From the NCBI GenBank assembly GCA_016296285.1, contig JAEDJP010000001.1, forward strand, positions 1 through 52,332: DNA of 52,332 nt, written 5' to 3'. The translations under genes and the position numbers were made by a program. Numbering within the stretch: the first letter of the stretch is position 1; each line of letters begins with the position of its first letter. Positions 24,910 through 49,969 of this stretch are shown here, one piece after another. The stretch is from Bacilli bacterium (GTDB lineage: Bacteria > Bacillota_I > Bacilli_A > RFN20 > CAG-826). Below the pieces are notes generated by a model. It made no database searches. It was not told where the DNA came from and was given only the letters and a program-made list of their open reading frames with translations.

Positions 24910-25494
24910 TTAGATCCTGCCTTTCGTCGCCGCGTCGACGAGGTCGAATTTGCCTAGCGTTCTCGCGTATGTGAAGAGCTTTTCCTTATCGATGTTTTTG
25001 GTTTTCGCCTCATCGAGGATGCTCGCGTATTCCTCGTCGAGGAAGCGGTCGCGATAAAGGATGAGGTCAACGATCGTCATCTCGATGTCATAGACGGGGA
25101 CAAGAGGGCCGTGCGGGGAGACCGCGAGGGATTGGCCAAGCAAATAACGGTCGGCGCCTTTCCGAAGGGCGTCCGCCCCTTCGATGCCCGCGGTCATGTA
25201 GTTTCGCGGCAAGGCGACCTCGAGAACCGGCTCGACGTGGAAGCCATGGAGATAGAGGGCGCTGCGAAGACAGAAGACCGCCTTTCGATAACGGAAGTGC
25301 AGGATGAAAAACGGGTCGATGGGGTACCCTTTTTTGATGTAGAGGCCTTTCGCCGCCTTCTGAAAAATGCCGGCTTCCTCCCCTTCGGAAAGATAGGTTT
25401 GGGCAATTCCCATACCCTTGGCCTCGGCCACTGAGACATACCCGTCATTCCAGTCCGCTAGGTCGAGCAATTTTTCAATGGATTTCTTTTTCAC
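24910..25494 (-). CDS. AbiEi/AbiGi-family antitoxin-like wHTH protein (orphan; no AbiEii partner)
   Basis: The roughly 194-aa C-terminal part of track ORF 24910-26031, starting at the GTG at 25494. The pattern is typical of AbiEi_4 proteins (DGYVSVAEAKGMGIAQTYLS..., KGLYIKKG, FILHFRYRKAVFCLRSALYLHGF, VYDIEMTIVDLI). The upstream part of the track ORF is antisense to rplM. Confidence 0.65.
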   Translation of the reverse strand: MKKKSIEKLLDLADWNDGYVSVAEAKGMGIAQTYLSEGEEAGIFQKAAKGLYIKKGYPIDPFFILHFRYRKAVFCLRSALYLHGFHVEPVLEVALPRNYMTAGIEGADALRKGADRYLLGQSLAVSPHGPLVPVYDIEMTIVDLILYRDRFLDEEYASILDEAKTKNIDKEKLFTYARTLGKFDLVDAATKGRI

Positions 25495-25548
25495 GCAACA
25501 ATAATAACAAAACGTTGTTTCAATGAAAACAAAAGAAGGAAAAATGCT

Positions 25549-25577
25549 TTGACAACGTAAGTTCCTCTTTCCATAAT
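25549..25577 (+). promoter_or_regulatory. sigma-70-type promoter of rplM-rpsI
   Basis: TTGACA (25549-25554), a 17-nt spacer, then CATAAT (25572-25577). The roughly 50-nt leader contains a short hairpin (CGTTTC-caaaa-GAAAC) and AAAGGA before the ATG. It could correspond to a ribosomal-protein L13 leader, but this was not verified. Confidence 0.7.
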
Positions 25578-25632
25578 ACCCCCGGCGTTTCCAAAAGAAA
25601 CACGTCAAAAATCGAAAAGAAAGGACAATCCT

Positions 25633-26076
25633 ATGCAGCGTCAAACCACGTTGGCCACCAACGAAAATGCCGTCCACAATTGGTACGTCGTTGATGCCAC
25701 CAACATCCCCCTTGGCCGCCTTGCTTCCAAGATCGCGGTCATCCTCATGGGCAAAGACAAGCCCACCTACACCCCGAACATCGATTGCGGTGACAATGTC
25801 GTCGTCATCAATGCCTCGAAGGTGAAGCTCACCGGCAACCACCCCGAGACCAAGAAGAACTACTACAACGTCTCTGGCTACAACGGTGGCCTCCGCACCC
25901 GTTCCTCCGGCGTCATGCTCAACGAATTCCCCGTCGAGATGATCGAGCGTGCCGTTTGGGGCATGCTTCCCAAGGGACGTCTCGGCCGCAAGATCGCGAG
26001 CAAGCTCCACGTCTATAGCGGCGCCGAGCACGAACAGGCGGCCCAGAAGCCGGTCGTCCTCGATCTCAGCAAATAA
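25633..26076 (+). CDS. rplM: 50S ribosomal protein L13
   Basis: 147 aa. NWYVVDATNIPLGRLASKIAVILMGKDKPTYTP is classic L13. Confidence 0.97.
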   Translation: MQRQTTLATNENAVHNWYVVDATNIPLGRLASKIAVILMGKDKPTYTPNIDCGDNVVVINASKVKLTGNHPETKKNYYNVSGYNGGLRTRSSGVMLNEFPVEMIERAVWGMLPKGRLGRKIASKLHVYSGAEHEQAAQKPVVLDLSK

Positions 26077-29689: not shown

Positions 29690-30435
29690 GTATATCTCCT
29701 TTCTATCGGAATTTTTCAGACGTTCTATATTTTCTTATATATCAATCTTTGTGAGGCCACTCTCATCAGCGTCTCACAGCTCAGCGTTTGAGCATAGGCA
29801 TGAATCGAGGTGCTACTTCACTGGGTTTCAGATCAGCACGGAAATCTTCCTGCATTGAACGAGTTTCCAAATTTTAGACCTTCAGGAAGCGGACAGGAGA
29901 GGAAGGAATCCTGCCTTTGATCGGTCTTGGCTTGGCTGCCTTCATCTTTTGACGATCTTTTTAGCTCAATGGTTTTCCGAGTTTCCACGCCTTAGATTTC
30001 TCGGCTAAAAGGCGACCTGAAACACTTAATATTATATCGATGATTTCAAAATATAAAAAGTATATTTAATACAATTACTGCTCGGGCTTAATTCCATAGT
30101 AAAAACAAAAAGAAAATAAGATAAATACTTTATAAACTTCGGAGTAAACATTTTCCTATTCAATCGGCTATAATTTGCTTTCCTCGCCAAGTAATAAGAT
30201 ATAAAAAGAATAGTTAAGCATTTTATAACTATAAATAGTATAGCTTTTGATTTTCTTTCTTCTGTTTCTGGTTTCTTGGTTTAGTTCCTTGACCTTTGGG
30301 AAATGGTCCTTTTGAACGATTTCGGATTTCCGTCTTCGAGGGCCGGCTTTTGAACCTCGCCCAAATTTCATTGGAAAAACAATGCTAGAGTTTCCGTTTT
30401 GATCCTTGTGGAGTTTTCTTGTGCGCGTGCGACTT

Positions 30436-30444
30436 TGGTATAAT
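30436..30444 (+). promoter_or_regulatory. candidate extended -10 promoter (TGgTATAAT) immediately upstream of rarA
   Basis: TATAAT at 30439-30444 is preceded by TGn. The rarA ATG (30455) is only 10 nt downstream and has no Shine-Dalgarno sequence, which implies a leaderless or near-leaderless mRNA if this promoter is used. Confidence 0.35.
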
Positions 30445-30454
30445 GCGTGACGAT

Positions 30455-31732
30455 ATGAAACAACCCTTAGCTTTCCGTGTCCGACCCAAGACTTTGGACG
30501 ATGTCGTTGGCCAAACGCATTTGGTTGGTCCTTCTTCCTTTCTTCGGAAATCCGTGGAGGAAAAACTCCCTTTCTCGTTCATCTTTTTCGGCCCTCCTGG
30601 AACGGGGAAAACGACGATCGCCGAGGCCTATGCTTCTTCCCTGGGCGCCCACTTCATCAAGCTTAACGCCGTGACGTGTTCCAAGAAGGATATGGAGGCC
30701 GCCGTCGAAGAGGCGAAACTTTGGAAACCGACCCTCCTTCTCATGGATGAAGTCCACCGTCTTGATAAAGGGAAACAAGACTATCTCTTGCCCTTTGTCG
30801 AGGATGGTACTTTCGTCCTGCTTGGCATGACCACCGCGAATCCCTACATCGCCCTTAGTCCCGCGATCCGAAGCAGGACGAGGCTCCTTGAAGTTAAACC
30901 CCTGACGAAAGAAGAAGTGGTCGAAGGACTGCAACGGGCGATCGATCGCCCGGATGGCCTTGGGGGCAAGGTTGCTTTCGAGAAGGACGCCCTTTTTGCC
31001 ATCGCGAAGCTCTCTGGGGGCGATATGCGTTATTCCCTCAATATCCTTGAGGAGGCCGCGCTCCAATTCGGCGGGAACGGACCCATCACGAAAGAGCAGG
31101 TCTTCGAAATCGAGAAGGTCCCGAATTACGCGATGGACAAAGACGCCGAAGAGCATTACGACTCCGTCTCCGCGTTGCAGAAATCCATCCGGGGATGCGA
31201 CGTGAATGCTGCCCTCTATTATCTTGCGAGGCTTTGCTCCGCCGGGGACCTCGATTCCATCAAACGCCGGTTGCTCGTGACCGCCTACGAAGATATCGGA
31301 CTCGCGAATCCCCAAGCCGTCATGCGGGCGCAGCTCGCCATCCAGGCCGCCGAGCAAGTCGGCTTCCCGGAAGCGGTCATTCCCCTTGGGGACGCCGTGG
31401 TCGATCTTTGCCTTTCGCCCCATTCCCGGACGGGAGACGAATCGATCGGCAAGGCCATGGCCTTCGCGAAGGATGCCCCCTTTTATGTGCAGGATTACCT
31501 CAAGCTCACGCCGGTGAACGTGAAAGAGGAGGACAAATATCCTTATGACCGTCCGGATGTCTGGCCGCGCCTTCAGTATTTGCCGGACGAATACGCGAAC
31601 GAGGAATTCTTCGTGAAAGACGAAACGACCACGTCCACCTATGTCCGCGCCCTCAACGCCCGTTATGAGGAACTCAAAAAAGCCGGACGTTCTTCCGATT
31701 TGAGGGCCCTCAAGAAGCGGAAGAAGGTGTAA
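30455..31732 (+). CDS. rarA: replication-associated recombination protein A (RarA/MgsA AAA+ ATPase)
   Basis: Walker A GPPGTGKTT, Walker B LLLMDEVHR, and the MgsA C-terminal motif HYDSVSALQKSIRGCDVNAALYYLARL. Start taken at MKQPLAFRVRPKTLDDVVGQ. Confidence 0.9.
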   Translation: MKQPLAFRVRPKTLDDVVGQTHLVGPSSFLRKSVEEKLPFSFIFFGPPGTGKTTIAEAYASSLGAHFIKLNAVTCSKKDMEAAVEEAKLWKPTLLLMDEVHRLDKGKQDYLLPFVEDGTFVLLGMTTANPYIALSPAIRSRTRLLEVKPLTKEEVVEGLQRAIDRPDGLGGKVAFEKDALFAIAKLSGGDMRYSLNILEEAALQFGGNGPITKEQVFEIEKVPNYAMDKDAEEHYDSVSALQKSIRGCDVNAALYYLARLCSAGDLDSIKRRLLVTAYEDIGLANPQAVMRAQLAIQAAEQVGFPEAVIPLGDAVVDLCLSPHSRTGDESIGKAMAFAKDAPFYVQDYLKLTPVNVKEEDKYPYDRPDVWPRLQYLPDEYANEEFFVKDETTTSTYVRALNARYEELKKAGRSSDLRALKKRKKV

Positions 31733-31852
31733 CCGCTTTCAAAGCCCATTTTCCTTGTCAAACCTCCAAACGCGTCTATAGTAGAGGACCCCGAAAAACC
31801 GGGGAGCGGCAATCGCCGTACCAGTAAAACGCGAAAAGGAGGTAAAGAGGCT

Positions 31853-32005
31853 ATGGTAGAAATGTTTAAGCGCCTATTCACGGGCAAGCGCTCCGTGACC
31901 AAGAAGGAAAAGAAAAACCATCATCCGATCCAGTCGTTCATGGATTCCGTCGCCGAAGGCTATGGAATCAACTTGGTGGACGACATCTCGAGCGGAAACC
32001 TTTGA
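31853..32005 (+). CDS. unannotated small ORF (50 aa; basic N-terminal half, acidic C-terminal half)
   Basis: It falls below the ORF-track length cutoff. AAAGGAGG (31836-31842) lies upstream of the ATG. Third-codon positions are about 70% G/C, as in host genes. A terminator follows directly. Peptide: MVEMFKRLFTGKRSVTKKEKKNHHPIQSFMDSVAEGYGINLVDDISSGNL. Confidence 0.5.
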   Translation: MVEMFKRLFTGKRSVTKKEKKNHHPIQSFMDSVAEGYGINLVDDISSGNL

Positions 32006-32009
32006 GAAA

Positions 32010-32038
32010 CGGGGGCCTAACGGCCCTCGCTTTTCGTT
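32010..32038 (+). terminator. rho-independent terminator after the small ORF
   Basis: Stem CGGGGGCC / GGCCCTCG (includes one G-U pair), loop TAAC, then C-TTTTCGTT. Confidence 0.6.
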
Positions 32039-32089
32039 GAAACGTCCCTTCGTCGCGGTGTAAACTAAGGCGCTTTCCAAAAGAAGCGC

Positions 32090-32172
32090 GCGGGCGTGGC
32101 GAAATTGGCAGACGCGTTAGACTTAGGATCTAATGGACTTCCGTGCAGGTTCAAGTCCTGTCGCCCGCACCA
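32090..32172 (+). tRNA. tRNA-Leu (anticodon TAG), class II with long variable arm
   Basis: Acceptor GCGGGCG/CGCCCGC, D-arm GCG-AAATTGGCAGA-CGC, anticodon stem TTAGA/TCTAA with loop CTTAGGA, long variable arm, T-loop TTCAAGT, encoded CCA. Confidence 0.9.
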
Positions 32173-32182
32173 TCGTATTTCA

Positions 32183-32226
32183 ACGGCCTCCCGCTTCCGG
32201 AAAGGAAGTGCGGAGGCCGTTTTTCT
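32183..32226 (+). terminator. rho-independent terminator after tRNA-Leu
   Basis: ACGGCCTCCCGCTTCC - gga - AAGGAAGTGCGGAGGCCGT followed by TTTTT (imperfect long stem). Confidence 0.75.
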
Positions 32227-32655
32227 TCTTCGCCAAGGTGAAATAGGGGTCCGAATTCTAGGCCTTATTAGACGGAATGCGCGCAGTGATGGAAGAATAT
32301 CCATGCGGATGCACGCTAAAATTTGTAGGAAGTAAGTTTGATAACCTTCCGAATCTTGTCGAGTTCGGGAGGTAGAGCAATTGCTTCAAATGAGGCATTT
32401 TAGACTCCTAGAAAGTTGATGATTAACTTTAGTTAACCTCTTCTTTCTTCGCTATGCATGTCTCCCTGATGTGACATCGCTTCTCACCCCTTTTTTCCAA
32501 AATTTTCCTTTTCGGTTTGAATGCATTGCCAAGCTACAAAAAAGGATAAAGAAAGTGTCATAATGGCCCAATTTTTCCAAAAAGTGCGAAAAAATTCGGC
32601 AAAAGGTAACCCCATTAGTCGACCATTTGCGCGTTGGATTTATCGCCCTACGGTT

Positions 32656-33987
32656 TCAGAAAAGCGGGGCGTCAAGAAGTGTCTCGTTCTTCAAGAAATC
32701 GAACAGACCTATGCGGACCACGCCATCCTCGTCGCTGGAAATTCCATCGGTGAATTTGCTGACGATGATTTTCGTGAATCCATCGCCGATTCTCCGGAAA
32801 GCTGCCTTTTCTTGGGAGAGCTTGGCCGCATCCGGAATCCAGTAAGCGGATTGGATGTAAAAGCGTCTCCCGTGGGTCTCCACCACGAAGTCCACTTCCC
32901 GATTCACGCGTGTTTGTCTGCCGTTCACCATTTCGTTGGTGCTGATGACCCCTACGTTGACCTGATAGCCCCTAGCTTGCAACTCGTTGTAGATTGCGTT
33001 CTCCATGAAGTGCGGTTCCTGGTCCATGCCTTTGAATCCGGCGGCCGCGCTCCTGAGCCCAAGGTCCTGAAAATAGTATTTCGCCGTTCCACCGATCGTC
33101 TCTTTTCCCTTCAAGTCGTAGCGCTGCGCTTTGGACACGAGGAAGGCATCCTCAAGATAATCGAAATATTTGCGGACCGTGTCGGGCGAAATGTGCGAAT
33201 TCTCTTTTGAGCGGAAAGTATTTGCAAGCTTGTTTGCGCTGATTAGGGAGCCCACCGATGTGGAAAGGAAAGAAGTGACTTCCTCCAGAGAATGCTCATT
33301 CCTTAAAGCGTGTCGGTCCGCGACGTCACGGATGTAGGTGGTGAGGAAGACATCTTTAAGATATGCCCTTTTCTCTTTCTCGGTGGCGAGCAAAGCACAT
33401 CCTGGCAGCCCTCCCCATCGGTAAAAAGAGTTCCAAAGGTTAAAATCGTTCACTGAAGTCGGCGTCGCTTCTCTTAGCTCACCGAAGCTGAGCGGATGCA
33501 TGTGGATTTGCCATCCCCTCCCTCGGAATTCGGTCGCAATGTCACTGGAGAGCATGTGAGAGTTGCTGCCGGTCACGTAGACGTCAACATTCCTGTATGA
33601 GGAAAGAAGCCCGTTCAAGACGCTGTAGAAGGTGATCGTAGGCTTTTTGCCGCTCACCGTTTGGACGCCTTCAAAATAGGGACTCTCAATGCTCTCGCAG
33701 AGCTGTATCTCGTCAATGAAAAGGAAGGCCTGCCCTTCTCTCGGAAGGATGGAGCGGACTTTCTTCCCCAGGGAAATGGGATTATGTAGTTCCTCATTCC
33801 TATCATCCGAAAGGTCAAGCATGAATATCCTGTCTTTCGGAATTCCGTGAGCCAATAGGTATTCGGTAAATATCGGGTTGAGGAGATAGGATTTCCCGGA
33901 TCTCCTTGGCCCGGTGATAACCTTAATCATCCCATTACCGATGGACGAAACGAGTTTCTGCAGGTATTTTGGCCTTTCGAATTGCAT
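32656..33987 (-). CDS. AAA+ ATPase of the AAA_14/DUF4143 family (islet 1)
   Basis: Walker A GPRRSGKSYLL, Walker B FLFIDEIQ, family-typical C-terminus (REVDFVVETHGRRFYIQSAYWI...QEKAAFRRIGDGFTKIIVS). GGAGG lies 6 nt upstream of the ATG. Paralog of 34649-35968. Confidence 0.8.
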   Translation of the reverse strand: MQFERPKYLQKLVSSIGNGMIKVITGPRRSGKSYLLNPIFTEYLLAHGIPKDRIFMLDLSDDRNEELHNPISLGKKVRSILPREGQAFLFIDEIQLCESIESPYFEGVQTVSGKKPTITFYSVLNGLLSSYRNVDVYVTGSNSHMLSSDIATEFRGRGWQIHMHPLSFGELREATPTSVNDFNLWNSFYRWGGLPGCALLATEKEKRAYLKDVFLTTYIRDVADRHALRNEHSLEEVTSFLSTSVGSLISANKLANTFRSKENSHISPDTVRKYFDYLEDAFLVSKAQRYDLKGKETIGGTAKYYFQDLGLRSAAAGFKGMDQEPHFMENAIYNELQARGYQVNVGVISTNEMVNGRQTRVNREVDFVVETHGRRFYIQSAYWIPDAAKLSQEKAAFRRIGDGFTKIIVSKFTDGISSDEDGVVRIGLFDFLKNETLLDAPLF

Positions 33988-34387
33988 CTTGCGCCTCCAA
34001 CTTGCTAAAGTCGTAGAAATCTACAACTTTGACTAGTAGATAGTTTAGCGCAACCGCCTTTAAACAAGAAGAGAAAGGCGATCTCTACCAAATTCAATGT
34101 GACTTTCTATGATCTTCTCGACCAGTTCCTAGACTTAGGAACTTGAAAACTCCAAGAATCCGGCAAGCCGAAAACGCCATGGCTGTCGGAAGAATGAGGT
34201 AAGGTGCGGACAAAAGAAGATGCGGACAAACCTTCCGGCCGGAGAAAATCCGGAAATTCTCCTGAAAAGTTGTCCGCAGGGTAGTAAAATCGGGGAAGCC
34301 GTTCCTCTTCTTGCTGAGAGAGGGTCAGCAGACGGCAAAGACGACATGTGGATGAATCCGTCCGCAGAAAGCAGCACACACGCACTA

Positions 34388-34465
34388 GTGGCGGAATAGG
34401 TATACGCGGCGGATTTAGGATCTATTGGATAATTTCATGCAGGTTCAAGTCCTGTCGCCCGCACC
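34388..34465 (+). pseudogene. decayed tRNA-Leu copy (non-functional acceptor stem)
   Basis: The 3' 32 nt (34437-34468) are identical to 32144-32175. The D-arm and anticodon-loop region (TTTAGGA) are recognisable. The 5' acceptor GCACTAG cannot pair with CGCCCGC, and the anticodon stem has mismatches. Confidence 0.75.
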
Positions 34466-34475
34466 ATCGGAAACA

Positions 34476-34516
34476 GACGGTCTCTCCTTCCTGGAAAGGA
34501 AGTGCGGAGACCGTTT
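34476..34516 (+). terminator. terminator hairpin homologous to the one after the intact tRNA-Leu
   Basis: ACGGTCTCTCCTTCC - tgga - AAGGAAGTGCGGAGACCGT followed by TTTT. It shares GGAAAGGAAGTGCGGAG(G/A)CCGTTTT with 32198-32224. Confidence 0.55.
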
Positions 34517-34648
34517 TCGTTTATCCACCAAGCGGAAAAGGATTTTATTTTCCAATTCAATCAAACGGAGATACTCTGGGGCGAAGGGCAAAGATATAAT
34601 ATATTTACAAATATTTCAAAAATTGAATTTTTTGTCACGAGGCATGCT

Positions 34649-35968
34649 ATGGAAATCAAGAGAGATTATTATCTGGAGCGGCTCATCCGTTCCCGCAACA
34701 ACGGGGCCATCAAGGTCATCGCCGGCATAAGGCGGTGTGGAAAGAGCTATCTTCTTGACCCGCTTTTCCGCTTTTGGCTCCTCAATCAGGGTATCCCTTC
34801 GGAAAGAATCATCAAAATCGACCTTTCCGAAGGGAGGAATCAGGCGCTGGCCAACCCTCTAAGTCTCTCGAATTACCTGGAGGGAATTCTTCCCAAAGAC
34901 GGTCCCTGCTACCTCTTCCTTGACGAGATTCAGCACTGCGAGGCCATCGAAAGCCCCTATTTTGATGACGTCAAAACCGCCAGCGGAAAAAAGCCCCTGA
35001 TCACCTTCTACACTGTACTGAACGGGATTCTGTCTTCCCACAAGAACGTCGACTGCTATGTGACGGGAAGCAATTCGAGGATGCTTTCCAGCGACATCCT
35101 TACGGATTTCCGCGGCCGGGGCTTTGAAATCCGGATGAGCCCTCTCTCATTCTCCGAGTACCTATCGGCGAGGAATGGGGCGGATCGGGGACAAGTCTTC
35201 CGGGATTACCTCCGCTACGGAGGGATGCCTTTCTCCCTGACCTACGATGACCCCGGTGACAGGGAGGAGTACCTCCGTTCCCTGTTCGGCACCGTCTACT
35301 ACAAGGACATCGTCGAGAGGTACAGGCTGCAGGAAAACTCTTCCCTAAACGAGCTCACGAAGGTAATGGCCTCATCCGTCGGGTCATTGATCAACACCAG
35401 CCGCATCGCGGACACGTTCCGTTCCACCGAGGGCAAAGGAATCGCCAGGAACACGATCGAAGGTTACCTCGGTTATCTCAAAGACGCTTTTCTCTTAGAA
35501 GAAGCGGAGAGGTACGACATACGAGGACGGAAAATTATCGGAAGCGGAAAGAAGTACTATTTTGCAGATACAGGGCTCCGAAACGCACTTCTCAATTTCC
35601 GCCAGCCCGACCGCGGCCATTTGATGGAGAACGCAATCTACAACGAGCTCATACGGCTCGGTTATGGAGTCGATGTCGGAGTTATCCGCTCCTATGACCC
35701 CACCGCACCCAAATCCAACGCCTCCCCACAGCTCGAGGTCGACTTCGTCGCGGAGAAGGGGGATGCCCGCTACTACATCCAGTCCGCCTTCTCGGTTGAT
35801 GACGAATCAAAGATGGCTCAAGAGAAACGTCCGCTTTTGGCCGTGAGGGACTCCTTCCGCAAGATCCTGATCGAAGGTGACGACTTCGAGCCGTATCAGG
35901 ACGACGACGGAGTGGTTCATGTCGGAGCCATCGATTTCCTCCTGAATGCTCCTTCTGTTCTGAGATGA
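34649..35968 (+). CDS. AAA+ ATPase of the AAA_14/DUF4143 family (islet 2)
   Basis: Walker A GIRRCGKSYLL, Walker B YLFLDEIQ, C-terminus LEVDFVAEKGDARYYIQSAFSV...QEKRPLLAVRDSFRKILIE. GAGG lies 6 nt upstream of the ATG at 34649. The track ORF from 34502 is an upstream extension. Confidence 0.8.
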   Translation: MEIKRDYYLERLIRSRNNGAIKVIAGIRRCGKSYLLDPLFRFWLLNQGIPSERIIKIDLSEGRNQALANPLSLSNYLEGILPKDGPCYLFLDEIQHCEAIESPYFDDVKTASGKKPLITFYTVLNGILSSHKNVDCYVTGSNSRMLSSDILTDFRGRGFEIRMSPLSFSEYLSARNGADRGQVFRDYLRYGGMPFSLTYDDPGDREEYLRSLFGTVYYKDIVERYRLQENSSLNELTKVMASSVGSLINTSRIADTFRSTEGKGIARNTIEGYLGYLKDAFLLEEAERYDIRGRKIIGSGKKYYFADTGLRNALLNFRQPDRGHLMENAIYNELIRLGYGVDVGVIRSYDPTAPKSNASPQLEVDFVAEKGDARYYIQSAFSVDDESKMAQEKRPLLAVRDSFRKILIEGDDFEPYQDDDGVVHVGAIDFLLNAPSVLR

Positions 35969-35999
35969 ATAAACTGGTTACTATTTTTTAAATTTATAA

Positions 36000-36161
36000 T
36001 TTCTTGTCACAACCACACGCGGCCATATCACGCTTCAGAAGATAGCCGAGTCGCTCAAGGTGTCCAAGAGGACGGCTTCAAGGATTGTCATCTCGCTCAA
36101 ATCAAAGGGGGTGCTCAGCAGGAACGGATCGGAAAGATCCGCAAAACGGATACTCCAATGA
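36000..36161 (+). pseudogene. 3' remnant of a gene encoding a C-terminal HTH domain
   Basis: Open frame with no start codon. It encodes ...ITLQKIAESLKVSKRTASRIVISLKSKGVLSRNGSERSAKRILQ*, a typical wHTH C-terminal tail, and is bounded upstream by TAA at 35997. Confidence 0.5.
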
Positions 36162-36424
36162 AGTGGTCGAGAATCAGAACAACAGGAATCCCATCTTCTT
36201 CTAGAATTTCTCCAGCAACCCGTCAGCTACTCAGTTTCAGACCGGCCCGCCGCTCCCATGCGTGCCTTCGATTTTCCCGAAAATTCGTCCGCAATCCGTC
36301 CGCATCAGGCGTTCAATTCGGTTCTAGAAGAATAATCCTAACTCTTAACGGCACTTAAGATTTCCCGATAGAATAATAAGCACTTTCTTCCAAAATGCTC
36401 CATCTCAAACCATCGGGGCATGCT

Positions 36425-36477
36425 GACTTAGGATCTGATGGACTTCCGTGCAGGTTCAAGTCCTGTCGCCCGCACCA
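36425..36477 (+). repeat. 3' fragment of tRNA-Leu (anticodon loop to CCA), att-like direct repeat
   Basis: 52 of 53 positions are identical to 32120-32172. Homology begins exactly at GACTTAGGA in the anticodon loop and ends at CCA. Confidence 0.85.
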
Positions 36478-36487
36478 ATAGAAAGGG

Positions 36488-36526
36488 AAGCCTCCGGCCC
36501 CAAAAGGGAACGGAGGCTTTTATTTT
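36488..36526. terminator. hairpin/terminator after the tRNA-Leu fragment
   Basis: AAGCCTCCG - 14-nt loop - CGGAGGCTT followed by TTATTTT. Confidence 0.6.
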
Positions 36527-36668
36527 CTTCGGCTCGGAACATCTATGGACGTAAACATTAAGCCCTATAAGACAGGAATGGTTACCGTGAAATAGAAGTA
36601 CCCTTTCGGTTACGGGAGATACCCATTTTGAAGATGTCGAAGCTACCGTAGTAGCTGGTATGGAAGTT

Positions 36669-37237
36669 CTACCAGAACTCATCGGTATCAACGAAGGAGT
36701 CATCGGCGAATAAGGCAAGACCTTCTTCGGGAAGATCCTTCTGGGTGAAGGTTGTTTCACGTCTATTGACCTTATTGTAGAAGTAATTGTTGTTATCGGC
36801 ATTGGAGCAGACGTTGACATAGAACTTGGCAAAGAAGTGCTCGGAGCTGGCAATGATTCTGGCGGAACCAACTTCATCACCATAGACATAACCGTTTTCG
36901 ATATGACCGATGGAAGTATTGGTGATGATATAGGTCATCTCTTAGGCAGCGTCAGGATTGGAGAAATGCAACTTGATCTTGTTGTAGCATCCCTTCATGA
37001 CAGGGCAGGCAGTAACTTCCAAAGTACCGTAATCAATCGGTCCGGAAAAAAGATTCCTCTTTGGAGGAAACTTCCTCAGGAGCCTGACTTTCGGAAGCCT
37101 CGGACTGGGTGGATTCAGACTTTTTGGGATGTCTTTCCTTCGCTGCTGATCGGCTTGGAGGTTTCACCGCCCTCCTTACCGCAGCCGGCCAACGCAAATA
37201 AAGCGGTAGAGGCCAATAATCAAAATTCACGTTTCAT
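36669..37237 (-). pseudogene. decayed lipoprotein gene (nonsense codons plus frameshifts)
   Basis: The ATG at 37237 gives MKREF-TGA-LLASTALFALAGCGKEGG, an in-frame TGA at 37220-37222 inside a lipoprotein signal peptide. The Ser/Glu linker (KKSESTQSEASESQAPEEVSSKEES) lies in another frame. A further frame change occurs near a T6 run, and an in-frame TAA lies at 36942-36944 before the last 89-codon ORF (36669-36938). Confidence 0.6.
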
Positions 37238-37251
37238 AAATGTTCTATAAC

Positions 37252-37280
37252 AAAAGAAACCCGGGATTGCTCCCGGGGTT
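37252..37280 (-). terminator. rho-independent terminator ending the locus-B operon (minus strand)
   Basis: On the minus strand: AACCCCGGGA - gcaa - TCCCGGGTT followed by TCTTTTG, 6 nt after the GH43 stop codon. Confidence 0.75.
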
Positions 37281-37285
37281 ATAGG

Positions 37286-38467
37286 TTAGATGAGATTTCC
37301 TTTGACGATATCGCTGATGGCGATGTCGTCGAAGTTGTTGATGTGAAGCTTACATTGATAGACGATGCGCATCTGGTCCATGGATTCACGTCCGTGGAAG
37401 ACATAATGAAGTTCGCCATCTTTCTCGACAACACATCCATGTCCTGTCGAATAGAGTGAGATTTCCGGAATCTGATGGATGATCGGATTCTTACCATATT
37501 TGTGATAGGGACCAAGTGGCCGATCGGCAACGGCTGCACCGATGCCATATAAGGCGTTTTCATAGCTGTTGCAGGAGTAGAAGATCAGATATTTCTTAAC
37601 GCCGTCAATGACATAGGGGATCGTCATGGAGCCTTCGGCCCAACGACGGTTATGCTTTTGGCCATGAGAAAATTCATAGTCGGAGATATGGCCGTTTTCC
37701 CATTCCTGAGGCTCATGGTAATAGGAGATGATCTGGACCCATTTATCCTTACGGATTTCAGGATGTTCAGCATCGTAGGCGACAAAGGAAGGATGAATGG
37801 TCGGCATCATCTTTGCTTCCTTGTCGTACCAGAAGGCAGGATCCAATTCTACGGCGAGAATATTGCTTTCCTCCACGAACTTGTCGAATCTCTGATCCGG
37901 TAAATTGTTCTCGTAGCAACAACGGGAATAGAAGAGATAGAAATGCCCGTCTTCCATCAGCAGATCGGCATCGATCGCAGGAATATAGGTTCCTTTTTTG
38001 GCTTTGCTTAAGTCTATTTCGGAGACTTTGACGGCGAAGGCGTCTTGGCAAAGCGCATCGACATCACGATATTCATAATCAAAGGGATAGTAATCAATCG
38101 GGTGATTGGCAAGGTTGCGGAAGGGGCCTTCAGGCGTCGCGGAAACGGCAACACCGATTTTGGAATTCTCTAAAAAGTCGGGTCTTCCGAAATACTTCGT
38201 CGTCAATTCCGGTTTCACTCTCGCAGAGTAGAAGAGATAGTAATGCTCGTTGTGCGGATTATAGTAGCATTCCGGAGCCCAGAACCAATCCGTTCCCCAG
38301 CACATTTCATCCTCATAATAGGCAAATCCGACCTTCTCCCAATTGCAAAGGTCTTTGGATTTATAGATGATGAAGTGTTTGGTTTCTTCATCACCGGTGG
38401 CATATGCGTAATACGTTCCTGTTTTAGGGTCCTTCATGACAAAAGGATCTGCACCGATGACATTCAT
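37286..38467 (-). CDS. glycoside hydrolase family 43 protein (cytoplasmic)
   Basis: Five-bladed-propeller motifs: GADPFVMKD (general-base Asp), WFWAPECYY, PAIDADLLMEDGHFYLFYS, and WAEGSMTIPY (acid Glu). No signal peptide. Confidence 0.75.
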   Translation of the reverse strand: MNVIGADPFVMKDPKTGTYYAYATGDEETKHFIIYKSKDLCNWEKVGFAYYEDEMCWGTDWFWAPECYYNPHNEHYYLFYSARVKPELTTKYFGRPDFLENSKIGVAVSATPEGPFRNLANHPIDYYPFDYEYRDVDALCQDAFAVKVSEIDLSKAKKGTYIPAIDADLLMEDGHFYLFYSRCCYENNLPDQRFDKFVEESNILAVELDPAFWYDKEAKMMPTIHPSFVAYDAEHPEIRKDKWVQIISYYHEPQEWENGHISDYEFSHGQKHNRRWAEGSMTIPYVIDGVKKYLIFYSCNSYENALYGIGAAVADRPLGPYHKYGKNPIIHQIPEISLYSTGHGCVVEKDGELHYVFHGRESMDQMRIVYQCKLHINNFDDIAISDIVKGNLI

Positions 38468-38509
38468 TGTTTCACCTCGACTTCCTGTTTGAAAATCACT
38501 TTTATTCCT

Positions 38510-40342
38510 TTAGATGAGGTCTGCGACGGAAACGTAAGAGGCATCCTTGTCGATGGCGATGGAAGAACCACCAAGATAGTAGTTGGCGTTGGTCTTCTTG
38601 CTGCCATCGCTCGTAACATCGTTATAGGCGACGACAACCTTCAAATCGCTCACATCCAAGCCCAACTCATCCAAGTTGACTCTACCTTCCATAACCATGC
38701 CCCTATCGTCTTCAGCACCACCGACGACATTGACTTCACCGGTCGTTCTCACATGGTGAGAAACATCGGTGATGGCCTTGGCATAAATCATGTTGCCTTT
38801 CGGGGAGTAGGAGCTTTCCGGGGAACCAGCAGCATAGATTCTCATCAAGTTGGCAGAGGAGAGAAGAACCGGAATGGCTTCCTTGGAACCGCCATTGGTC
38901 AGATAGAGACGCAAATCATCGTTGCCACCCTTCTGGCCCATATCGCCGGCATGCCAGGCTTCGGCATCGGTCCAGATATCGCCATCGGTAATATTGGCGG
39001 CAAAGTACAAATCGCCATTGGCTTCATCGACCTTGAAAGAGATCGTTCCCTTGCCATCGATATCGTTGGTCTTGGCATCTGCCCAATCATCGATCTTGCC
39101 GTCAACCATTGGGAATTCGCTGACATGGACCGGAAGTTTGCCGTCATAGACACCCCAATTGGTCGTAGCCTTGAAGGAAACTTCCTGATCGCCTTCGGTA
39201 AGCTGATAACCACCGTCATAGCTGACCTTGACCGTGCCGGTCGTACCGTTTTCGAACTCCGCTTCCAAATATTCAGGAAGCTTGCTATGAGCCTTGACGG
39301 AGACATTGACCGGATCGGCTTCGATCTTGGTAATCTTTCTGTTATCGTTGAGAGCAATCAATTCGGCCGCGGCTCTATGGCCTAAGACAAAGTTATCCTG
39401 AGCGCCGAAATGCCAAGGCTCGAAGGTGTTGGTATATAAGTCTTCGGTATGGACGAAATGGGTGTTGGCATCTTCGGAAGCAACCTTCTTCTGGATTTTA
39501 CGAAGCTTGTTGCAGTATCGACCGGAATTGGTGACGGCTTCGGTAACGACGACAGGAAGGTCTGCATCACCGACATATTCGCGGAAGTCATGGATGAAAT
39601 CGCCTAAGGCTTTTTCATAGATCTCCATGTTCTTTTCATACTTGGTATCCTGTTCGCCATGGACCCAGATAAGGCCATCGATGACCGCTTCAAAGCCTTC
39701 TTCCTTGACCTGAGCGATGGCTTTGTCGACCAACTGATACAGGTTATTGGTAAGAGGGCCGGTATAATCACCGTTCTTGTCTTCTCTGATCTGGACCGGG
39801 TTGAGGGCATCTTCCATATCAGGATCATCCATCATGGATTTGGAGAACCAGTGATCGGTGAAGGTAGAACCGCAGGCGGTGTATTTGACGATCATGGACT
39901 TACGGGATTTGCCGTTCTTCTGATAACGGGTGGCCATGGTCTCAGCAATGCCGAGTTCCGGACCGAATTCCGATGCACTATCGCCCAAACCAGGTTTGAC
40001 CGGAGAGATGCTCTTGAAAGTAGGATGTTCGGGGATATTACCCAGATTTTCCATTCTCATGCCATCTTCGAGGATATCCACTTCCTCATTGGCAACGTTC
40101 TGTGCTTCGGTCAAATCGCTGACCAATGCCTTGCCACGTCCACCGGACTGACCGGAGAGGACAACGATGTGTACCTTGTCATCCTCGACAGGGGCGACAA
40201 AGGAAGATTCGGAGGAAGTCTGAGATTCCACGCTTTCCTGTTCGGAAGTGGGATGCTCGCTGGTCTTGTCTGCTTCCTTGCCACAGCTAACCAAGCCCAT
40301 CATCATCAAACCCACTGTCAACAAAGTAACACTCTTTTTCAT
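38510..40342 (-). CDS. lipoprotein: SASA/DUF303-type carbohydrate O-acetylesterase domain plus C-terminal CBM9-like module
   Basis: Lipobox G-L-V-S-C and a Ser/Glu linker. SASA-like motifs: VLSGQSGG (GQS), WVHGEQD, and PWHFG. The C-terminal DGKIDDWADAKTNDIDG...DLYFAANITDGD resembles CBM9. Confidence 0.55.
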   Translation of the reverse strand: MKKSVTLLTVGLMMMGLVSCGKEADKTSEHPTSEQESVESQTSSESSFVAPVEDDKVHIVVLSGQSGGRGKALVSDLTEAQNVANEEVDILEDGMRMENLGNIPEHPTFKSISPVKPGLGDSASEFGPELGIAETMATRYQKNGKSRKSMIVKYTACGSTFTDHWFSKSMMDDPDMEDALNPVQIREDKNGDYTGPLTNNLYQLVDKAIAQVKEEGFEAVIDGLIWVHGEQDTKYEKNMEIYEKALGDFIHDFREYVGDADLPVVVTEAVTNSGRYCNKLRKIQKKVASEDANTHFVHTEDLYTNTFEPWHFGAQDNFVLGHRAAAELIALNDNRKITKIEADPVNVSVKAHSKLPEYLEAEFENGTTGTVKVSYDGGYQLTEGDQEVSFKATTNWGVYDGKLPVHVSEFPMVDGKIDDWADAKTNDIDGKGTISFKVDEANGDLYFAANITDGDIWTDAEAWHAGDMGQKGGNDDLRLYLTNGGSKEAIPVLLSSANLMRIYAAGSPESSYSPKGNMIYAKAITDVSHHVRTTGEVNVVGGAEDDRGMVMEGRVNLDELGLDVSDLKVVVAYNDVTSDGSKKTNANYYLGGSSIAIDKDASYVSVADLI

Positions 40343-40443
40343 TGGAATTCCTGCTATGAAATGTTTTTGAAATTGAATCGAATCGATGCCTTTTTTCTCC
40401 TCTTCATTTTAGTGTGAGAAAGCCCTTTCTTTTATCATTAATA

Positions 40444-42702
40444 TTAATGCTGGGAATGGACGGAAAAGGACGTGAAACAAGCCTTGCAGTTTTGTGCATA
40501 TAGACCGACTTTGCCATTCAGATTTCCGTTTTGGAAGACGCCTTTAATCACTTCCACATCATTGACGCAAAGCCGTAATTCATTGTTTTCCTGATAGGCG
40601 GCAAGATGGTATGACTTACCAGGAACAATCGGATATTCTTCGCTCGCAATCGTCTCCAGGAAGTTGTAATCGACTTTCTTGATGCAGATTCTTCCCATAT
40701 CGAATCCGATGAAGAAACCTCGGAAGGAGGTAGCATGTTCGCTGCCATCGGCATCTTCCTTGAACGGAATGCAGTCATCCGTGACGGAGAGAAGGAGGCC
40801 GGCACCACCGGTTTCCTTGGCATGAACAAAGACCATATCCGTCTCAACCTTCACGTCGGTGTAAACCTGTTTGGTCAATAAGGAGACGACTTTCTCTTCA
40901 TGACTGACGAGTCCCGTGTCCTCCAAGGATTCGACATTGCGGCAATGGAACGGATCAAGGTCCGCATGTTCATCCAAACTCACAGAAAGATCCGTTCCGT
41001 TTTGATGTTTCCTATGTTCGAAGGCAGAGAAGGAGAAGTCCCCTTTGAAATGAATGGCATGAACGCCTTTCTTCATCGGCAGTGTCAGGACTTTGGTCCT
41101 GACTTCCTTATCGGTTTGGAAAGAAGGAAGGGTGAATGGATGGAATTCATTTTCGTCAATCCTCATGCCGACTTCGCGATGGAAGGAGGAAGCAGGAATG
41201 GTCAGGATGATATCTTCTTCCTGGTCATCCGGAACGAAGATGTTGTAGATGACATCATCCATCGGGCTCACATGGAGGAAACCGGTTCCCGCTTTTTCGC
41301 AAAGAGAACTCTCTTCTTCATAATCCTTAGCGTAATGGATGGTATCGGCAGGATAGAGACGATCCGAAGAGCCTAAGGCAACCGCGGAGATGGAGGAGGA
41401 GAGAATCTCATGGAAGGTATGATCCTTTCGATATCCGACAGCACCTTCCCCAAGTTCCACCTGTCCTAAACCAAGTTCTCTATGATCAAAGCACAAGGCG
41501 AATCTTCCTTGACGGAATTGGAAGAGGAAACTGTGGACGACATCCTTTCGATACAAGTGATCCAAAGGGTATTCCTGAATGGTCTGGTAGTCTTTGCCGC
41601 ATTGCATCACCAAGGAGATGCTGTCTCCCTTGAAGTTGAGAACCAAGGTCTTTTCAGAGTTACGAGAGAGAATCATCTCACCATAACCGATATTGTTGAA
41701 TTCCACGGAATAGGTATCGCCATGTTCGGCAAGAAGATACATATCGTCCTTGTCTAACATCTGTTCCAAACCATTGGTGGTATGAGCGCGTCCGACAAAG
41801 GGAATGCCATGTCTTCTCATGCCGTTGAGAGCCATTCGATCGTCATCGAAGCTGATGCGGGCAAGGTTGTAGTAACGCGGCCCCTCCTCCATGTTGTGAT
41901 AAACCATGAAGTAGGAATCTAGGTCCGGTCCTAAGACCGTGCAGGAATGACCTAAGCCATAGTAATCATCGTTGGTGGAAACCAAAATGGTAGCCTTTCT
42001 TTCCAAATAGGCAGGGTCAAAGGTATCGCATCGTTCCGTTGCATAATCGACTCTATAATCACGGCTGAGGAAATGTGCTCCGCAATAGGTCAGATAGTAT
42101 CTGCCATAACGCTTGAGCATATACGGTCCTTCATTCCAACCGGAAAGACGACAGGTCAACAAGGACGTCTTGCCGCCTTCTGTTCCTTTCCCTCCTTTGC
42201 AGGAAGTGAAGTCATCGTTGATTTCATAAACGCGGATGGACTCTTCGCCGGAGGTAAAGAGATATTTCTTTCCGTCGCTGTCGATGAAGAAGGAACCATC
42301 GATCCTTCTTTCGAGATTCTCACTGATGCAGGTAAAGGGTCCTTCCGGCTTCTCGGCCCTGAAGAAATAGTGACCGTTACCGTCAGGAGAGGCAACCATA
42401 TAGAAGGATCCGTCGTGATAGATGACTTCCGGAGCATAGGGGCAATCACCGGTTTTCGGATGATTGGGATCTGATCGGTAATCGTAGCAATATCCGACGT
42501 CCGTCACTTTGTTGCTGCAGGGTTCAAAGTGAAGCATGTCATCGGAGACATAACAGGAGATACGGCTATCCGGCGTGGTAAAGTAAAGGTAGTATTTGCC
42601 ATTGAAACGATAGAGGAAGGGATCGGGTGCTTCCAAATCAAAAGGCATTTTCATGCCATTGTCATAAAGGGTCAGTAAACCATCTTTCTTTGTCAATTTC
42701 AT
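40444..42702 (-). CDS. GH43 glycoside hydrolase with a large C-terminal beta-sandwich (LamG/CBM-like) extension, cytoplasmic
   Basis: GH43 motifs: EAPDPFLYRFNGKYYLYF, CPYAPEVIYHDG, RIDGSFFIDSDGKKYLF, and GWNEGPYMLKRYG. About 450 further residues end in a concanavalin-like segment. No signal peptide. Confidence 0.75.
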   Translation of the reverse strand: MKLTKKDGLLTLYDNGMKMPFDLEAPDPFLYRFNGKYYLYFTTPDSRISCYVSDDMLHFEPCSNKVTDVGYCYDYRSDPNHPKTGDCPYAPEVIYHDGSFYMVASPDGNGHYFFRAEKPEGPFTCISENLERRIDGSFFIDSDGKKYLFTSGEESIRVYEINDDFTSCKGGKGTEGGKTSLLTCRLSGWNEGPYMLKRYGRYYLTYCGAHFLSRDYRVDYATERCDTFDPAYLERKATILVSTNDDYYGLGHSCTVLGPDLDSYFMVYHNMEEGPRYYNLARISFDDDRMALNGMRRHGIPFVGRAHTTNGLEQMLDKDDMYLLAEHGDTYSVEFNNIGYGEMILSRNSEKTLVLNFKGDSISLVMQCGKDYQTIQEYPLDHLYRKDVVHSFLFQFRQGRFALCFDHRELGLGQVELGEGAVGYRKDHTFHEILSSSISAVALGSSDRLYPADTIHYAKDYEEESSLCEKAGTGFLHVSPMDDVIYNIFVPDDQEEDIILTIPASSFHREVGMRIDENEFHPFTLPSFQTDKEVRTKVLTLPMKKGVHAIHFKGDFSFSAFEHRKHQNGTDLSVSLDEHADLDPFHCRNVESLEDTGLVSHEEKVVSLLTKQVYTDVKVETDMVFVHAKETGGAGLLLSVTDDCIPFKEDADGSEHATSFRGFFIGFDMGRICIKKVDYNFLETIASEEYPIVPGKSYHLAAYQENNELRLCVNDVEVIKGVFQNGNLNGKVGLYAQNCKACFTSFSVHSQH

Positions 42703-42738
42703 GAGAATGCCTCCATTTTGCCTTGCAACAATTCCTAA

Positions 42739-43899
42739 TTAGAGGAATCTAGGGCCCTTTTGGGGCTCATCCATATGCGGATCATAGGAAGGCTTCTTCG
42801 TATTTACATAGGGGAATCCCTTGTCGTCCCAAAGAATCTTATCCATCATTAAGTGACGGGTTGCAAAATTGTCCTTGCGGGTATAGGCGTGATAGTAGAT
42901 CCAATAATCACCCGCATCATCCTTGATGATGGAGTTGTGACCAGGACCATAGACATCGCTGTCATCGAGAGGACCTCCCCAAACAACGACGTTACCATAG
43001 GTCGTGCCACTACGAGACATGGTGAGCTTCATGCCTTTGCTATCGATGAAAGGACCGTTGACGCTGTTGGAGATGCCAGCCATGACGCGGTAAGTGGAAT
43101 CGGTGCCGGCACAACAGGTACCGGTGGAACCGAAAAAGACATACTTGCCATTGTGCTCGAGGACATAGCTACCTTCGTACTGGGAACCATCCCAGTCAGT
43201 AGGAGCGCCTGCCACAAGAATCTTATTTTCCTTCCAATAGTCGATGTCGTCGCCCTTAAGGCCGATGCCATCATCATTGAGCTGAACCTGATAGAGACCC
43301 TGGAAAGAACCGAATGTCATCCAAACTTCACCATCGGAAGTCTGAATGACCTGAGGGTCAATGGCGTTTTCAACATCGATTTCCTTATAGGAGAAGAGTT
43401 TGCCTTGATCGACATAGGGACCGCCGATGTTGTCGGCGATACCATAACCGATACCGACGCAATCTCCCCAGCCGGAAAGGGAATAGTAGTAAATCCACTT
43501 GTTACCGATCTTGACGACATCCGGAGCCCACATATAGATCTGACTCGGATTGATGGCCATGCCAGGTTCTTTGTGCCAGGTCGGGAAGTTGATGATTTCA
43601 CCGCCAACCTGAGTCCAGGTGCAGCCGTCATCACTCTTCAAAGTGATTCGATTGGTGGCAAAGCACCAGAGTTCACCGGATTCGGGGTCTCTCACGACCG
43701 TTGGGTCAGCAACTTCACCGCTGAAGGGAGAACCGGTAGTCGTCATTGCCATGAGCGGGTTGGAGAACTCGCCATAGTAATATCCCGGTTCATCGGAAGA
43801 TTCTTCGGAAGCATTGGGTGTTTGATTCGAAGGAGGAGTCGTGTTACCGCAGGAAATCAACAAGGCGACGAACGCGAATCCTAATAATGATTTCTTCAT
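42739..43899 (-). CDS. GH43 glycoside hydrolase lipoprotein (extracellular)
   Basis: Start at MKKSLLGFAFVALLISCGN (lipobox L-I-S-C), with AGGAGC 5 nt upstream. GH43 motifs: VADPTVVRD, MWAPDVVKIG, IDPQVIQTSDGEVW, and YEGSYVLEHNG. The track start at 43944 overlaps the upstream gene. Confidence 0.8.
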   Translation of the reverse strand: MKKSLLGFAFVALLISCGNTTPPSNQTPNASEESSDEPGYYYGEFSNPLMAMTTTGSPFSGEVADPTVVRDPESGELWCFATNRITLKSDDGCTWTQVGGEIINFPTWHKEPGMAINPSQIYMWAPDVVKIGNKWIYYYSLSGWGDCVGIGYGIADNIGGPYVDQGKLFSYKEIDVENAIDPQVIQTSDGEVWMTFGSFQGLYQVQLNDDGIGLKGDDIDYWKENKILVAGAPTDWDGSQYEGSYVLEHNGKYVFFGSTGTCCAGTDSTYRVMAGISNSVNGPFIDSKGMKLTMSRSGTTYGNVVVWGGPLDDSDVYGPGHNSIIKDDAGDYWIYYHAYTRKDNFATRHLMMDKILWDDKGFPYVNTKKPSYDPHMDEPQKGPRFL

Positions 43900-43909
43900 G
43901 AACGGCTCC

Positions 43910-46186: not shown

Positions 46187-46235
46187 TTTGGAAAGCCTCC
46201 TGATTGATGTTTTTCAGCAAAGAATTGCTGAGGAA

Positions 46236-48259: not shown

Positions 48260-48306
48260 CGGCAAACACTCCTTTTGTTAAGAATCAAACGTAAACCCAA
48301 GTCCGA

Positions 48307-49941: not shown

Positions 49942-49969
49942 AAATAAAGTTTCCTCCCTTGCAATACGG

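Follow-up and report, generated by a model that had tools for sequence, protein, structure and literature searches.

We describe here a 4,305-bp segment within a 52,332-bp stretch of DNA (the window, an entire contig, JAEDJP010000001.1) from the metagenome-assembled genome (MAG; GCA_016296285.1, 1.41 Mb, 87% complete) of a member of the Bacilli (CAG-826). The segment lies directly downstream of a tRNA-Leu(UAG) gene and carries two divergent genes, A1 and A2, each coding for an ATPase with AAA_14 and DUF4143 domains that matches the phage-defence candidate family PDC-S01. Our assessment is that this segment (32173-36477) probably consists of two independently acquired one-gene cassettes and the stub of a third gene, which entered behind the tRNA without a recombinase and with a long duplication of the target. 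This reading draws on the insertion and the empty site of a relative, the repeats, the absence of a recombinase, the independent ancestry of A1 and A2, the enrichment of repeats around related genes, the hot spot with its arrays and the variation in copy number, and from these we infer how the cassettes may insert and what their biological role may be. An earlier, sequence-only reading of the locus had noticed the two ATPases as the sole cargo of tRNA-flanked islets and had suggested mobility or a role in phage defence or addiction; its first observation is confirmed and its interpretation is partly supported.

An insertion behind tRNA-Leu(UAG)

In the closest relative (genome G014), homology to the window runs through 30388-32172 and resumes at 36425-36525, with flanks that are 81-84% identical. 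Its identical tRNA is followed directly by a homologue of window positions 36478-36525, the terminator T0, and the same continuation is found in two further relatives (G008 and G004). Because the G014 tRNA is joined directly to T0, the segment 32173-36477 is an insertion, or else a segment that was precisely lost from the relatives. The terminator hairpin T1 that now follows the tRNA in the window was not found 3' of the tRNA-Leu gene of any relative, and thus arrived with the insertion. The segment is bounded by a 53-nt direct repeat (52/53 identical) that runs from two bases 5' of the anticodon loop to the CCA end. With a direct repeat of more than 30 bp that is present as a single copy at the empty site of G014, the locus has the repeat structure of insertion with long target duplication. 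Given the empty site of the closest relative, the islets are a real insertion, and A1 and A2 are indeed their only intact cargo.

A decayed tRNA copy across which the two genes diverge had also been reported, and it is real (34388-34466). This pseudo-tRNA has approximately 80% identity to the live tRNA, is without the 5' acceptor strand and is not called by ARAGORN. The middle repeat, which comprises the pseudo-tRNA and a copy of the terminator hairpin T1, named T1', is a mosaic: its 5' part is 66-79% identical to the live tRNA, positions 34438-34469 match in 32/32, and T1' is at about 88%. The perfect 32-nt block agrees with this lineage's own allele, flanked by stretches at 66-88%, and a perfect run of at least 32 nt has a P of approximately 0.015 under random placement of the 24 differences. 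No donor of the pseudo-tRNA was found among 19 tRNA-Leu(UAG) genes of the genus, all of which are equally distant from it (62-65 matches of about 77). The mosaic is suggestive of a crossover inside the tRNA homology, and gene conversion would give the same pattern.

Besides A1 and A2, the insertion contains non-coding DNA and a winged-helix stub of 51 codons. A tblastn search of the intergenic parts with proteins of the cassette families gave nothing convincing. The stub is probably the 3' end of an earlier, mostly deleted cassette gene; judging from sequence, an origin of the COG2865 type is possible, the similarity to the C-termini of AlbA_2/COG2865 proteins being weak.

There is no mobility gene in or near the insert, yet the repeat is a tRNA 3' segment, a typical integrase target. 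Neither the tyrosine recombinase model PF00589 nor the serine recombinase model PF00239 has a match on the 52-kb contig. MAG-wide, only two Xer-sized tyrosine recombinases (PF00589), both on other contigs, and zero serine recombinases (PF00239) were found, and integrase or resolvase remnants are present neither in the insertion nor, beyond the two Xer-like genes, in the genome. An integrase adjacent to tRNA-Leu(UAG) was seen in 0 of the 10 genus loci examined, and no integrase stands inside the element beside a repeat, where a tRNA-integrating island would have it. The coordinates of all features are collected in Table 1.

Table 1. Features of the insertion and its borders (window coordinates)
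Feature	Position	Strand	Description
tRNA-Leu(UAG)	32090-32172	+	Functional tRNA, insertion target; ARAGORN; 83/83 identical to G014 tRNA
Direct-repeat copy 1	32120-32172	+	tRNA 3' part, anticodon stem to CCA; repeat family D2
Whole insertion	32173-36477		4,305 bp; two stacked one-gene units and debris; no counterpart at the orthologous G014 site
T1	32185-32225	+	Terminator hairpin just 3' of the tRNA; 88-96% identical to T1'
A1	32656-33987	-	443-aa AAA_14 + DUF4143 ATPase, PDC-S01 sub-model PDLC04787; start at 33987
Palindrome 5' of A1	34007-34030		Near-perfect, 24 nt, AAAGTCGTAGAAATCTACAACTTT; 20-43 nt 5' of the A1 start; candidate operator, single-copy in the window
Middle repeat	34388-34518	+	Pseudo-tRNA (tRNA positions 8-83) at 34388-34466; T1' at 34479-34518
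Palindromes 5' of A2	34601-34634		Two, short, ATATTTACAAATAT and CAAAAATTGAATTTTTTG; between a TATAAT-like box and the A2 ribosome-binding site; candidate operators
A2	34649-35968	+	439-aa AAA_14 + DUF4143 ATPase, PDC-S01 PDLC04787; ATG start at 34649
Winged-helix remnant	36000-36155	+	MarR/HTH_11-like, 51 codons, stop-terminated, directly 3' of A2; Pfam HTH_11 E 4e-6, MarR E 2e-5
Direct-repeat copy 3	36425-36477	+	tRNA positions 31-83, right insertion boundary; 52/53 identical to copy 1
T0	36478-36525	+	Ancestral tRNA-Leu terminator; homologous to the sequence directly 3' of the tRNA in G014, G008 and G004

The same site in sister species

The tRNA-Leu(UAG) gene is an insertion hot spot in sister species as well. 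In G022, the tRNA is followed by one DUF4143 gene and a 74-nt tRNA copy. G012 has two arrays, in which tRNA 3' fragments stand between single genes of the PDC-S01 (three different sub-models), PDC-S27 (ATPase_2/DUF234) and AlbA_2/HATPase_c_4/winged helix-turn-helix (wHTH; COG2865 type) families, and in G019 tRNA fragments are found with other small cargo. The 3' limit of the duplicated tRNA part is the CCA end, and its 5' limit varies (about positions 8, 9, 25, 31 and 33). At one G012 locus (L025, contig C40, 6115-8543), the unit that comes first 3' of tRNA-Leu contains DUF4417 and IrrE/Peptidase_M78-like genes and no ATPase, so the hot spot takes other small cargo too. Across 31 members of the genus with genomes of 1.0-2.4 Mb, the number of DUF4143 copies per genome ranges from 2 to 43, in line with the earlier description of the family as often multi-copy; the genome studied here has 11 DUF4143 matches, several of them clustered with AlbA_2 genes. 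Relatives thus show association with repeats and tRNA fragments together with variable presence, the opposite of what the sequence-only reading had named as evidence against its own proposal. A candidate second islet at tRNA-Asp (ends of contigs C50 and C107) was rejected: it is a 55-nt perfect overlap of contig ends (k=55), an assembly k-mer artefact, which matters for any count of tRNA fragments in this MAG.

Ancestry and upstream regions of A1 and A2

The open reading frames (ORFs) of A1 and A2 have the positions, starts and sizes first reported for them. The two proteins are 48% identical across 435 residues (BLASTP, E 4e-145), and their description as paralogous stands insofar as they are homologous along their full length; local duplication, in contrast, is not what the tree shows. 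In the maximum-likelihood tree, A1 is sister to a Prevotella homologue (L034) and A2 is a lone deep branch, the distance of A1 to L034 being 1.02 versus 1.59 between A1 and A2, and the third close paralogue of the genome (C153_5392) falls in another clade. Because of this tree, A1 and A2 are regarded as independent acquisitions without local duplication, which makes their divergent orientation incidental. Homologues with 40-53% identity are present in Prevotella, Alistipes, Bacilli, Coriobacteriaceae, Lachnospiraceae, Bifidobacterium, Kiritimatiellae, Fibrobacter, Methanocorpusculum and others, and also on plasmids and in a few phage-labelled records. The exact sequences of A1 and A2 have no match in the public assemblies searched.

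Walker motifs, ribosome-binding sites and full length are intact in both genes, as had been noted, with GGAGG or GAGG 6 nt 5' of the A1 and A2 starts. An in-frame GTG is present upstream of A2 at 34502, from which the ORF would enter the pseudo-tRNA, and it is unlikely to be the true start. The palindromes 5' of A1 and A2 are each single-copy, with no repeat elsewhere in the window. On other contigs of the same genome (C81, C15, C90 and C153), several DUF4143 paralogues are preceded by direct-repeat arrays of 3-4 x 17-33 nt, among them CCAAAAATATGCATTTT, present in four copies before C81:8470, and a 33-nt unit in three copies before C15:21768. These arrays look operator-like, and each paralogue has a different one. 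The palindromes of A1 and A2 and the arrays of the other paralogues would be consistent with self-regulation via the winged helix.

Domain architecture and possible function

The assignment of both proteins to AAA_14 and DUF4143, which had been proposed as a check, holds. AAA_14 precedes DUF4143 from the N- to the C-terminus in A1 and A2, and both domains score above the Pfam gathering cut-offs (AAA_14: E 1e-27 and 1e-25, 97 and 90 bits against a cut-off of 27; DUF4143: E 9e-20 and 2e-20, 71 and 73 bits against 28.1). The PADLOC hidden Markov model (HMM) PDLC04787 of PDC-S01, a single-gene system, matches A1 at E 7.6e-105 and A2 at E 3.8e-115, so that a defence role for these proteins was already catalogued as a hypothesis. 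NCBIfam has no model covering A1 or A2, and no solved structure matches them by sequence.

The residues G26-x4-G31-K32-S33, D92-E93 and T139-G-S-N142, which make up the signature of an AAA+/P-loop NTPase, are invariant in 60/60 sequences of the subfamily, and the "VTGSNS" block is intact in A1 and A2 and likewise invariant in the 60 members. In the C-terminal part, H326, E329, N330, E364, D366, Q379 and S380 are invariant in 60/60. DUF4143 is listed in the PD-(D/E)XK superfamily (PMC3424549), and the suggestion of a restriction-endonuclease-like module at the C-terminus is supported as to membership of that clan; the "I-Q" that had been quoted as part of it belongs to an invariant Y-I-Q-S-A, which is non-canonical. 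Of the canonical catalytic signature, E329 and E364-x-D366 are present, and the third motif reads Q379-S380-A381 in 60/60. Of six paralogues of this genome that are more distantly related, five keep (E/D)-x-K. The site of the C-terminal motif is clearly under selection, yet it is no textbook nuclease site; judged from sequence, the PD-(D/E)XK fold is probably retained and canonical catalysis should not be assumed.

An AlphaFold2 model of A2, built from a 59-sequence alignment, has a mean predicted local distance difference test (pLDDT) score of 92 and a predicted template-modelling (pTM) score of 0.91. Its best fold match in the PDB is SSO1545 (2fna, ATPase_2/DUF234), followed by Orc1/Cdc6 and then by the Apaf-1/CED-4/NLR group of signal transduction ATPases with numerous domains (STAND) and clamp loaders. 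The predicted architecture comprises an AAA+ initiator/STAND-like module, then a helical lid and a winged helix and, at the C-terminus, an alpha/beta domain of the PD-(D/E)XK clan.

PDC-S01 (AAA_14 + DUF4143; COG1373) is a phage-defence candidate that was defined by its embedding in defence islands, not by function. It has been described as ranking fourth by frequency among defence candidates across prokaryotes and as the single locus found most often in rumen MAGs, and its abundance in archaea and in microbes of the rumen and gut is reported to be very high. With moderate confidence, we regard A1 and A2 as putative conflict genes, that is, NTP-dependent nucleic-acid sensors with an effector, which would serve in defence or addiction and move as one-gene cassettes.

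Flanking repeats as a general footprint

To characterize the footprint, a direct repeat with E<1e-6 was required within 900 nt on both sides of a gene. Among 204 ORFs of 350-550 aa from the same genome, such repeats flank 6/12 DUF4143/AlbA_2 ORFs (five DUF4143 and one AlbA_2) versus 0/192 others (Fisher p 1e-8). In other phyla, 17 of the 76 testable homologue loci are repeat-flanked, versus 2 of 88 neighbouring ORFs (p 5e-5). In length the repeats range over 29-189 nt; they are 93-100% identical and locus-specific, and often include the 3' end of the neighbouring gene or its terminator. The unit between them measures 1.32-1.58 kb in 16 loci, which corresponds to one gene and a short leader. 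A tRNA lies within 4 kb at only 5 of the 80 homologue loci of other phyla, so tRNA linkage as a family-wide trait is rejected. The general trait of the family is a long, locus-specific flanking duplication.

Some individual loci are worth describing. On contig C153 of the same genome (3357-8279), a tandem array consists of a DUF4143 gene (470 aa), a second DUF4143 gene (435 aa), which is a close paralogue of A1/A2, and an AlbA_2/HATPase_c_4 gene (441 aa). The middle gene is flanked by perfect 162-nt direct repeats (5029-5190 and 7438-7599) that are an internal piece of the AlbA_2 gene, and hence cassettes appear to insert into one another. On contig C165 (1393-2868, minus strand), a 39-nt direct repeat (38/39 identical) lies on both sides of a gene for a 491-aa AlbA_2/Schlafen-type protein; this is the sole non-DUF4143 case among the 204 ORFs, and suggests that COG2865 genes move in the same way as the DUF4143 cassettes. 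Additionally, a circular 2,630-bp record (L114; NZ_CP133466.1, Prevotella nigrescens DSM 13386) consists of an ATPase gene of the subfamily and part of a type IIG restriction-modification (RM) gene. The whole record matches, at 100% identity, a segment of the chromosome of a different strain (L116:5001-7630). There, the ATPase gene interrupts an Eco57I-type RM gene next to an Mpi invertase, and the segment has no flanking repeat. The circle is ambiguous, and could be an excised circle or an assembly artefact.

A model for insertion and its alternatives

In the explanation that we favour, each cassette would code for a protein that joins an Orc/Cdc6-like AAA+ ATPase to a winged helix and a PD-(D/E)XK-type domain, and would have its own predicted promoter and operator. 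Cassettes would enter without a recombinase of their own, and entry would duplicate a target segment, here the tRNA 3' end with or without the terminator, on both sides. The tRNA 3' end, which is conserved in the genus, probably doubles as a short homology patch, such that cassettes that are already flanked could excise as loops and enter related genomes again through homologous (Campbell-type) recombination, building up arrays. For example, a single crossover between the resident tRNA and a circular cassette carrying a related tRNA-plus-terminator segment would give a mosaic middle copy. The proteins would most likely serve as NTP-driven sensors and effectors with foreign or own nucleic acid as their target, and defence or addiction of this kind would also retain the cassette in the genome.

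Several observations weigh against this explanation. The repeat from the anticodon stem to CCA is the exact footprint of tyrosine integrases, and Furuta et al. separate such cases; since the completeness of the MAG is 87%, an integrase could act in trans from a missing contig, a plasmid or a phage. The empty-site argument uses about 50 nt of terminator homology, with which a site that was never inserted and one that was precisely excised look the same. The outer repeat (98%) is better kept than the inner one (about 80%), which stacking with the oldest unit outside does not predict. At three loci of other genomes (L035, L067 and L088), the repeats contain the gene's own operator-like palindrome and no obvious target sequence, and other flanking repeats may derive from neighbouring paralogous cassettes. 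As to function, the subfamily has Y-I-Q-S-A in place of E-x-K, with Ala at the position of the canonical catalytic Lys, and in the one published test of a PDC-S01 representative, E. coli B was not protected from T4, T5 or T7.

The segment could instead hold relics of tRNA-integrating elements, similar to cis-mobilizable elements (CIMEs), if a tyrosine integrase that has since been lost or is encoded elsewhere, on a phage or an integrative and conjugative element, had integrated serially with tRNA-Leu(UAG) as its attB and the ATPases were the surviving att-proximal cargo. Tandem accretion is a familiar feature of tRNA genes, the MAG is incomplete, and a 230-aa integrase-like frame lies 4.3 kb from one G012 array (contig C42), which is the sole nearby case in 31 genus genomes. 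A repeat from 2 nt before the anticodon loop to CCA is, moreover, the classic integrase identity block (PMC2853133). However, neither an integrase nor a remnant was found in the insertion, on the contig or beside tRNA-Leu(UAG) in the fetched loci, and many genus genomes hold only two Xer-like recombinases. Nor would a single integrase yield a 5' limit of the duplicated tRNA segment that varies, and exactly one gene per unit, in three related families and several species, is unlikely to result from random decay. The one-gene, long-repeat footprint is also found at many non-tRNA sites in other phyla, and we consider an origin through integrases to be somewhat unlikely. A local origin, in which an ancestral tRNA-adjacent ATPase gene was duplicated and inverted together with tRNA sequence, with no mobility and with a housekeeping or regulatory role, would explain why A1 and A2 are adjacent and homologous over their full length and why tRNA-derived segments are repeated. 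But homologues from Prevotella, Alistipes, Bacilli and Coriobacteriaceae are closer to A1 than A2 is, the closest relative's site is empty, copy number varies 20-fold within the genus, and the family spans phyla and is also present on plasmids. The tree, the best matches in other phyla and the empty site contradict a local duplication of A1 and A2, and this account is extremely improbable.

The ATPase-nuclease might also be its own mobility enzyme, in which case each unit would be an autonomous one-gene element that makes widely staggered nicks in the target and thereby leaves long, variable duplications. The ATPase is the sole gene between the repeats, it combines a DNA-loading-type AAA+ module and a wHTH with a nuclease-fold domain that has strictly conserved polar residues, and the enrichment of the footprint is specific to this family and the AlbA_2 family. 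On the other hand, the units have no conserved ends that could be recognized, the palindromes 5' of the two genes occur once each, the canonical catalytic Lys is absent in the subfamily, and unrelated cargo (RM systems, AlbA_2) with the same footprint points to a host or DNA-break-repair route and away from a dedicated transposase; self-mobility is very unlikely. A broader proposal would make PDC-S01, PDC-S27 and AlbA_2/COG2865 genes primarily autonomous, recombinase-free one-gene mobile elements, whose protein makes or exploits widely staggered breaks to insert its own gene with a long target duplication and which, in genome-reduced gut bacteria of the RFN20 type, would use conserved tRNA 3' ends as portable homology arms, piling up to 43 copies in 2 Mb and moving between species. 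We hold this to be quite unlikely, and retain recombinase-free entry of conflict-gene cassettes with long target duplication as the probable explanation.

Variable DNA around the insertion

Synteny with G014 ends approximately 50 nt past the third tRNA copy, and the GH43, SASA-esterase and ABC sugar locus in the remainder of the window (36526-52332) is absent there. With no G014 counterpart to this right-hand locus, tRNA-Leu marks a wider boundary of variable DNA. Approximately 6 kb upstream of tRNA-Leu, by a tRNA-Ile/Val/Thr cluster, the window (24910-26031, minus strand) codes for a 373-aa protein with an AbiEi_4 antitoxin-type domain (E 3e-6). In G004 (L029, contig C12, 8758-10113) and G021 (L030, contig C1), a 451-aa DUF4143 gene lies between the tRNA-Ile/Val/Thr cluster and mgsA; the same position in the window is an AT-rich, gene-poor gap (about 29690-30418), which indicates a second variable site beside tRNAs.

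Implications and comparison with known systems

The identity of the family is known, as is the type of footprint for other genes. New relative to the literature searched are the long-duplication footprint of the abundant PDC-S01 family and of PDC-S27 and COG2865 genes, the stacking of such units at a tRNA gene without a recombinase, and the extreme copy numbers of the family in genome-reduced gut bacteria. The locus is a clean and datable example: the site is empty in a sister species, one tRNA received two arrivals that were independent of each other, and there is no recombinase. It ties PDC-S01 to insertion with long target duplication, which was described for RM systems in 2000-2010 and the mechanism of which was never solved, and a 1.3-kb single-gene cassette would make that mode of insertion experimentally tractable. 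Should these genes be selfish cassettes, neither their high numbers nor their place in islands would have to reflect an anti-phage function, which calls for caution in censuses of defence genes.

Insertion with long target duplication was reportedly described for RM gene units by Nobusato et al. in 2000. It was later documented for RM systems of all types and for the lone mcrA gene, with tRNA targets treated as possibly integrase-mediated (Furuta, Abe and Kobayashi 2010, PMC2853133). The units of those studies resemble ours in being small and without mobility genes, in having variable direct repeats of >30 bp that are single-copy in the empty-site genome, in the enrichment of the footprint over ordinary genes, and in that single nuclease-type genes (mcrA) are included. 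In contrast, the cargo here is a lone ATPase of the AAA+/PD-(D/E)XK fold (or a PDC-S27 or AlbA_2 gene) and no RM pair, the target is a tRNA 3' end, and the units stack into arrays.

With tRNA-integrating islands and CIMEs, the locus shares insertion at a tRNA 3' end, a repeat that extends from the anticodon stem as far as CCA, a regenerated tRNA and tandem accretion; it differs in having no integrase in cis or nearby, 2-kb one-gene units and a variable extent of the duplicated tRNA. Integron arrays are similar in their single-ORF units, in the short repeats between them and in the use of one chromosomal site, whereas here the separators are tRNA 3' fragments and not attC, each unit has a promoter region, and the genome has no IntI-type integrase; an integron cassette array would have IntI with attI, and cassettes that end in attC.

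At the level of the protein, SSO1545 (2fna) of the ATPase_2/DUF234 family (PDC-S27), Orc1/Cdc6 and the STAND ATPases have the AAA+ core, helical lid and winged helix in common with the model (Foldseek E 4e-9 to 1e-6), at 12-16% sequence identity and with a PD-(D/E)XK-clan C-terminal domain in A1/A2 instead of DUF234; PDC-S27 cassettes of the SSO1545 family sit in the same tRNA-Leu arrays of relatives. Compared with PDC-S01 itself, for which the literature searched gives no account of tRNA- or repeat-flanked cassette behaviour, A1 and A2 have the same two-domain architecture and match PDLC04787, and their subfamily differs by Y-I-Q-S-A replacing ExK.

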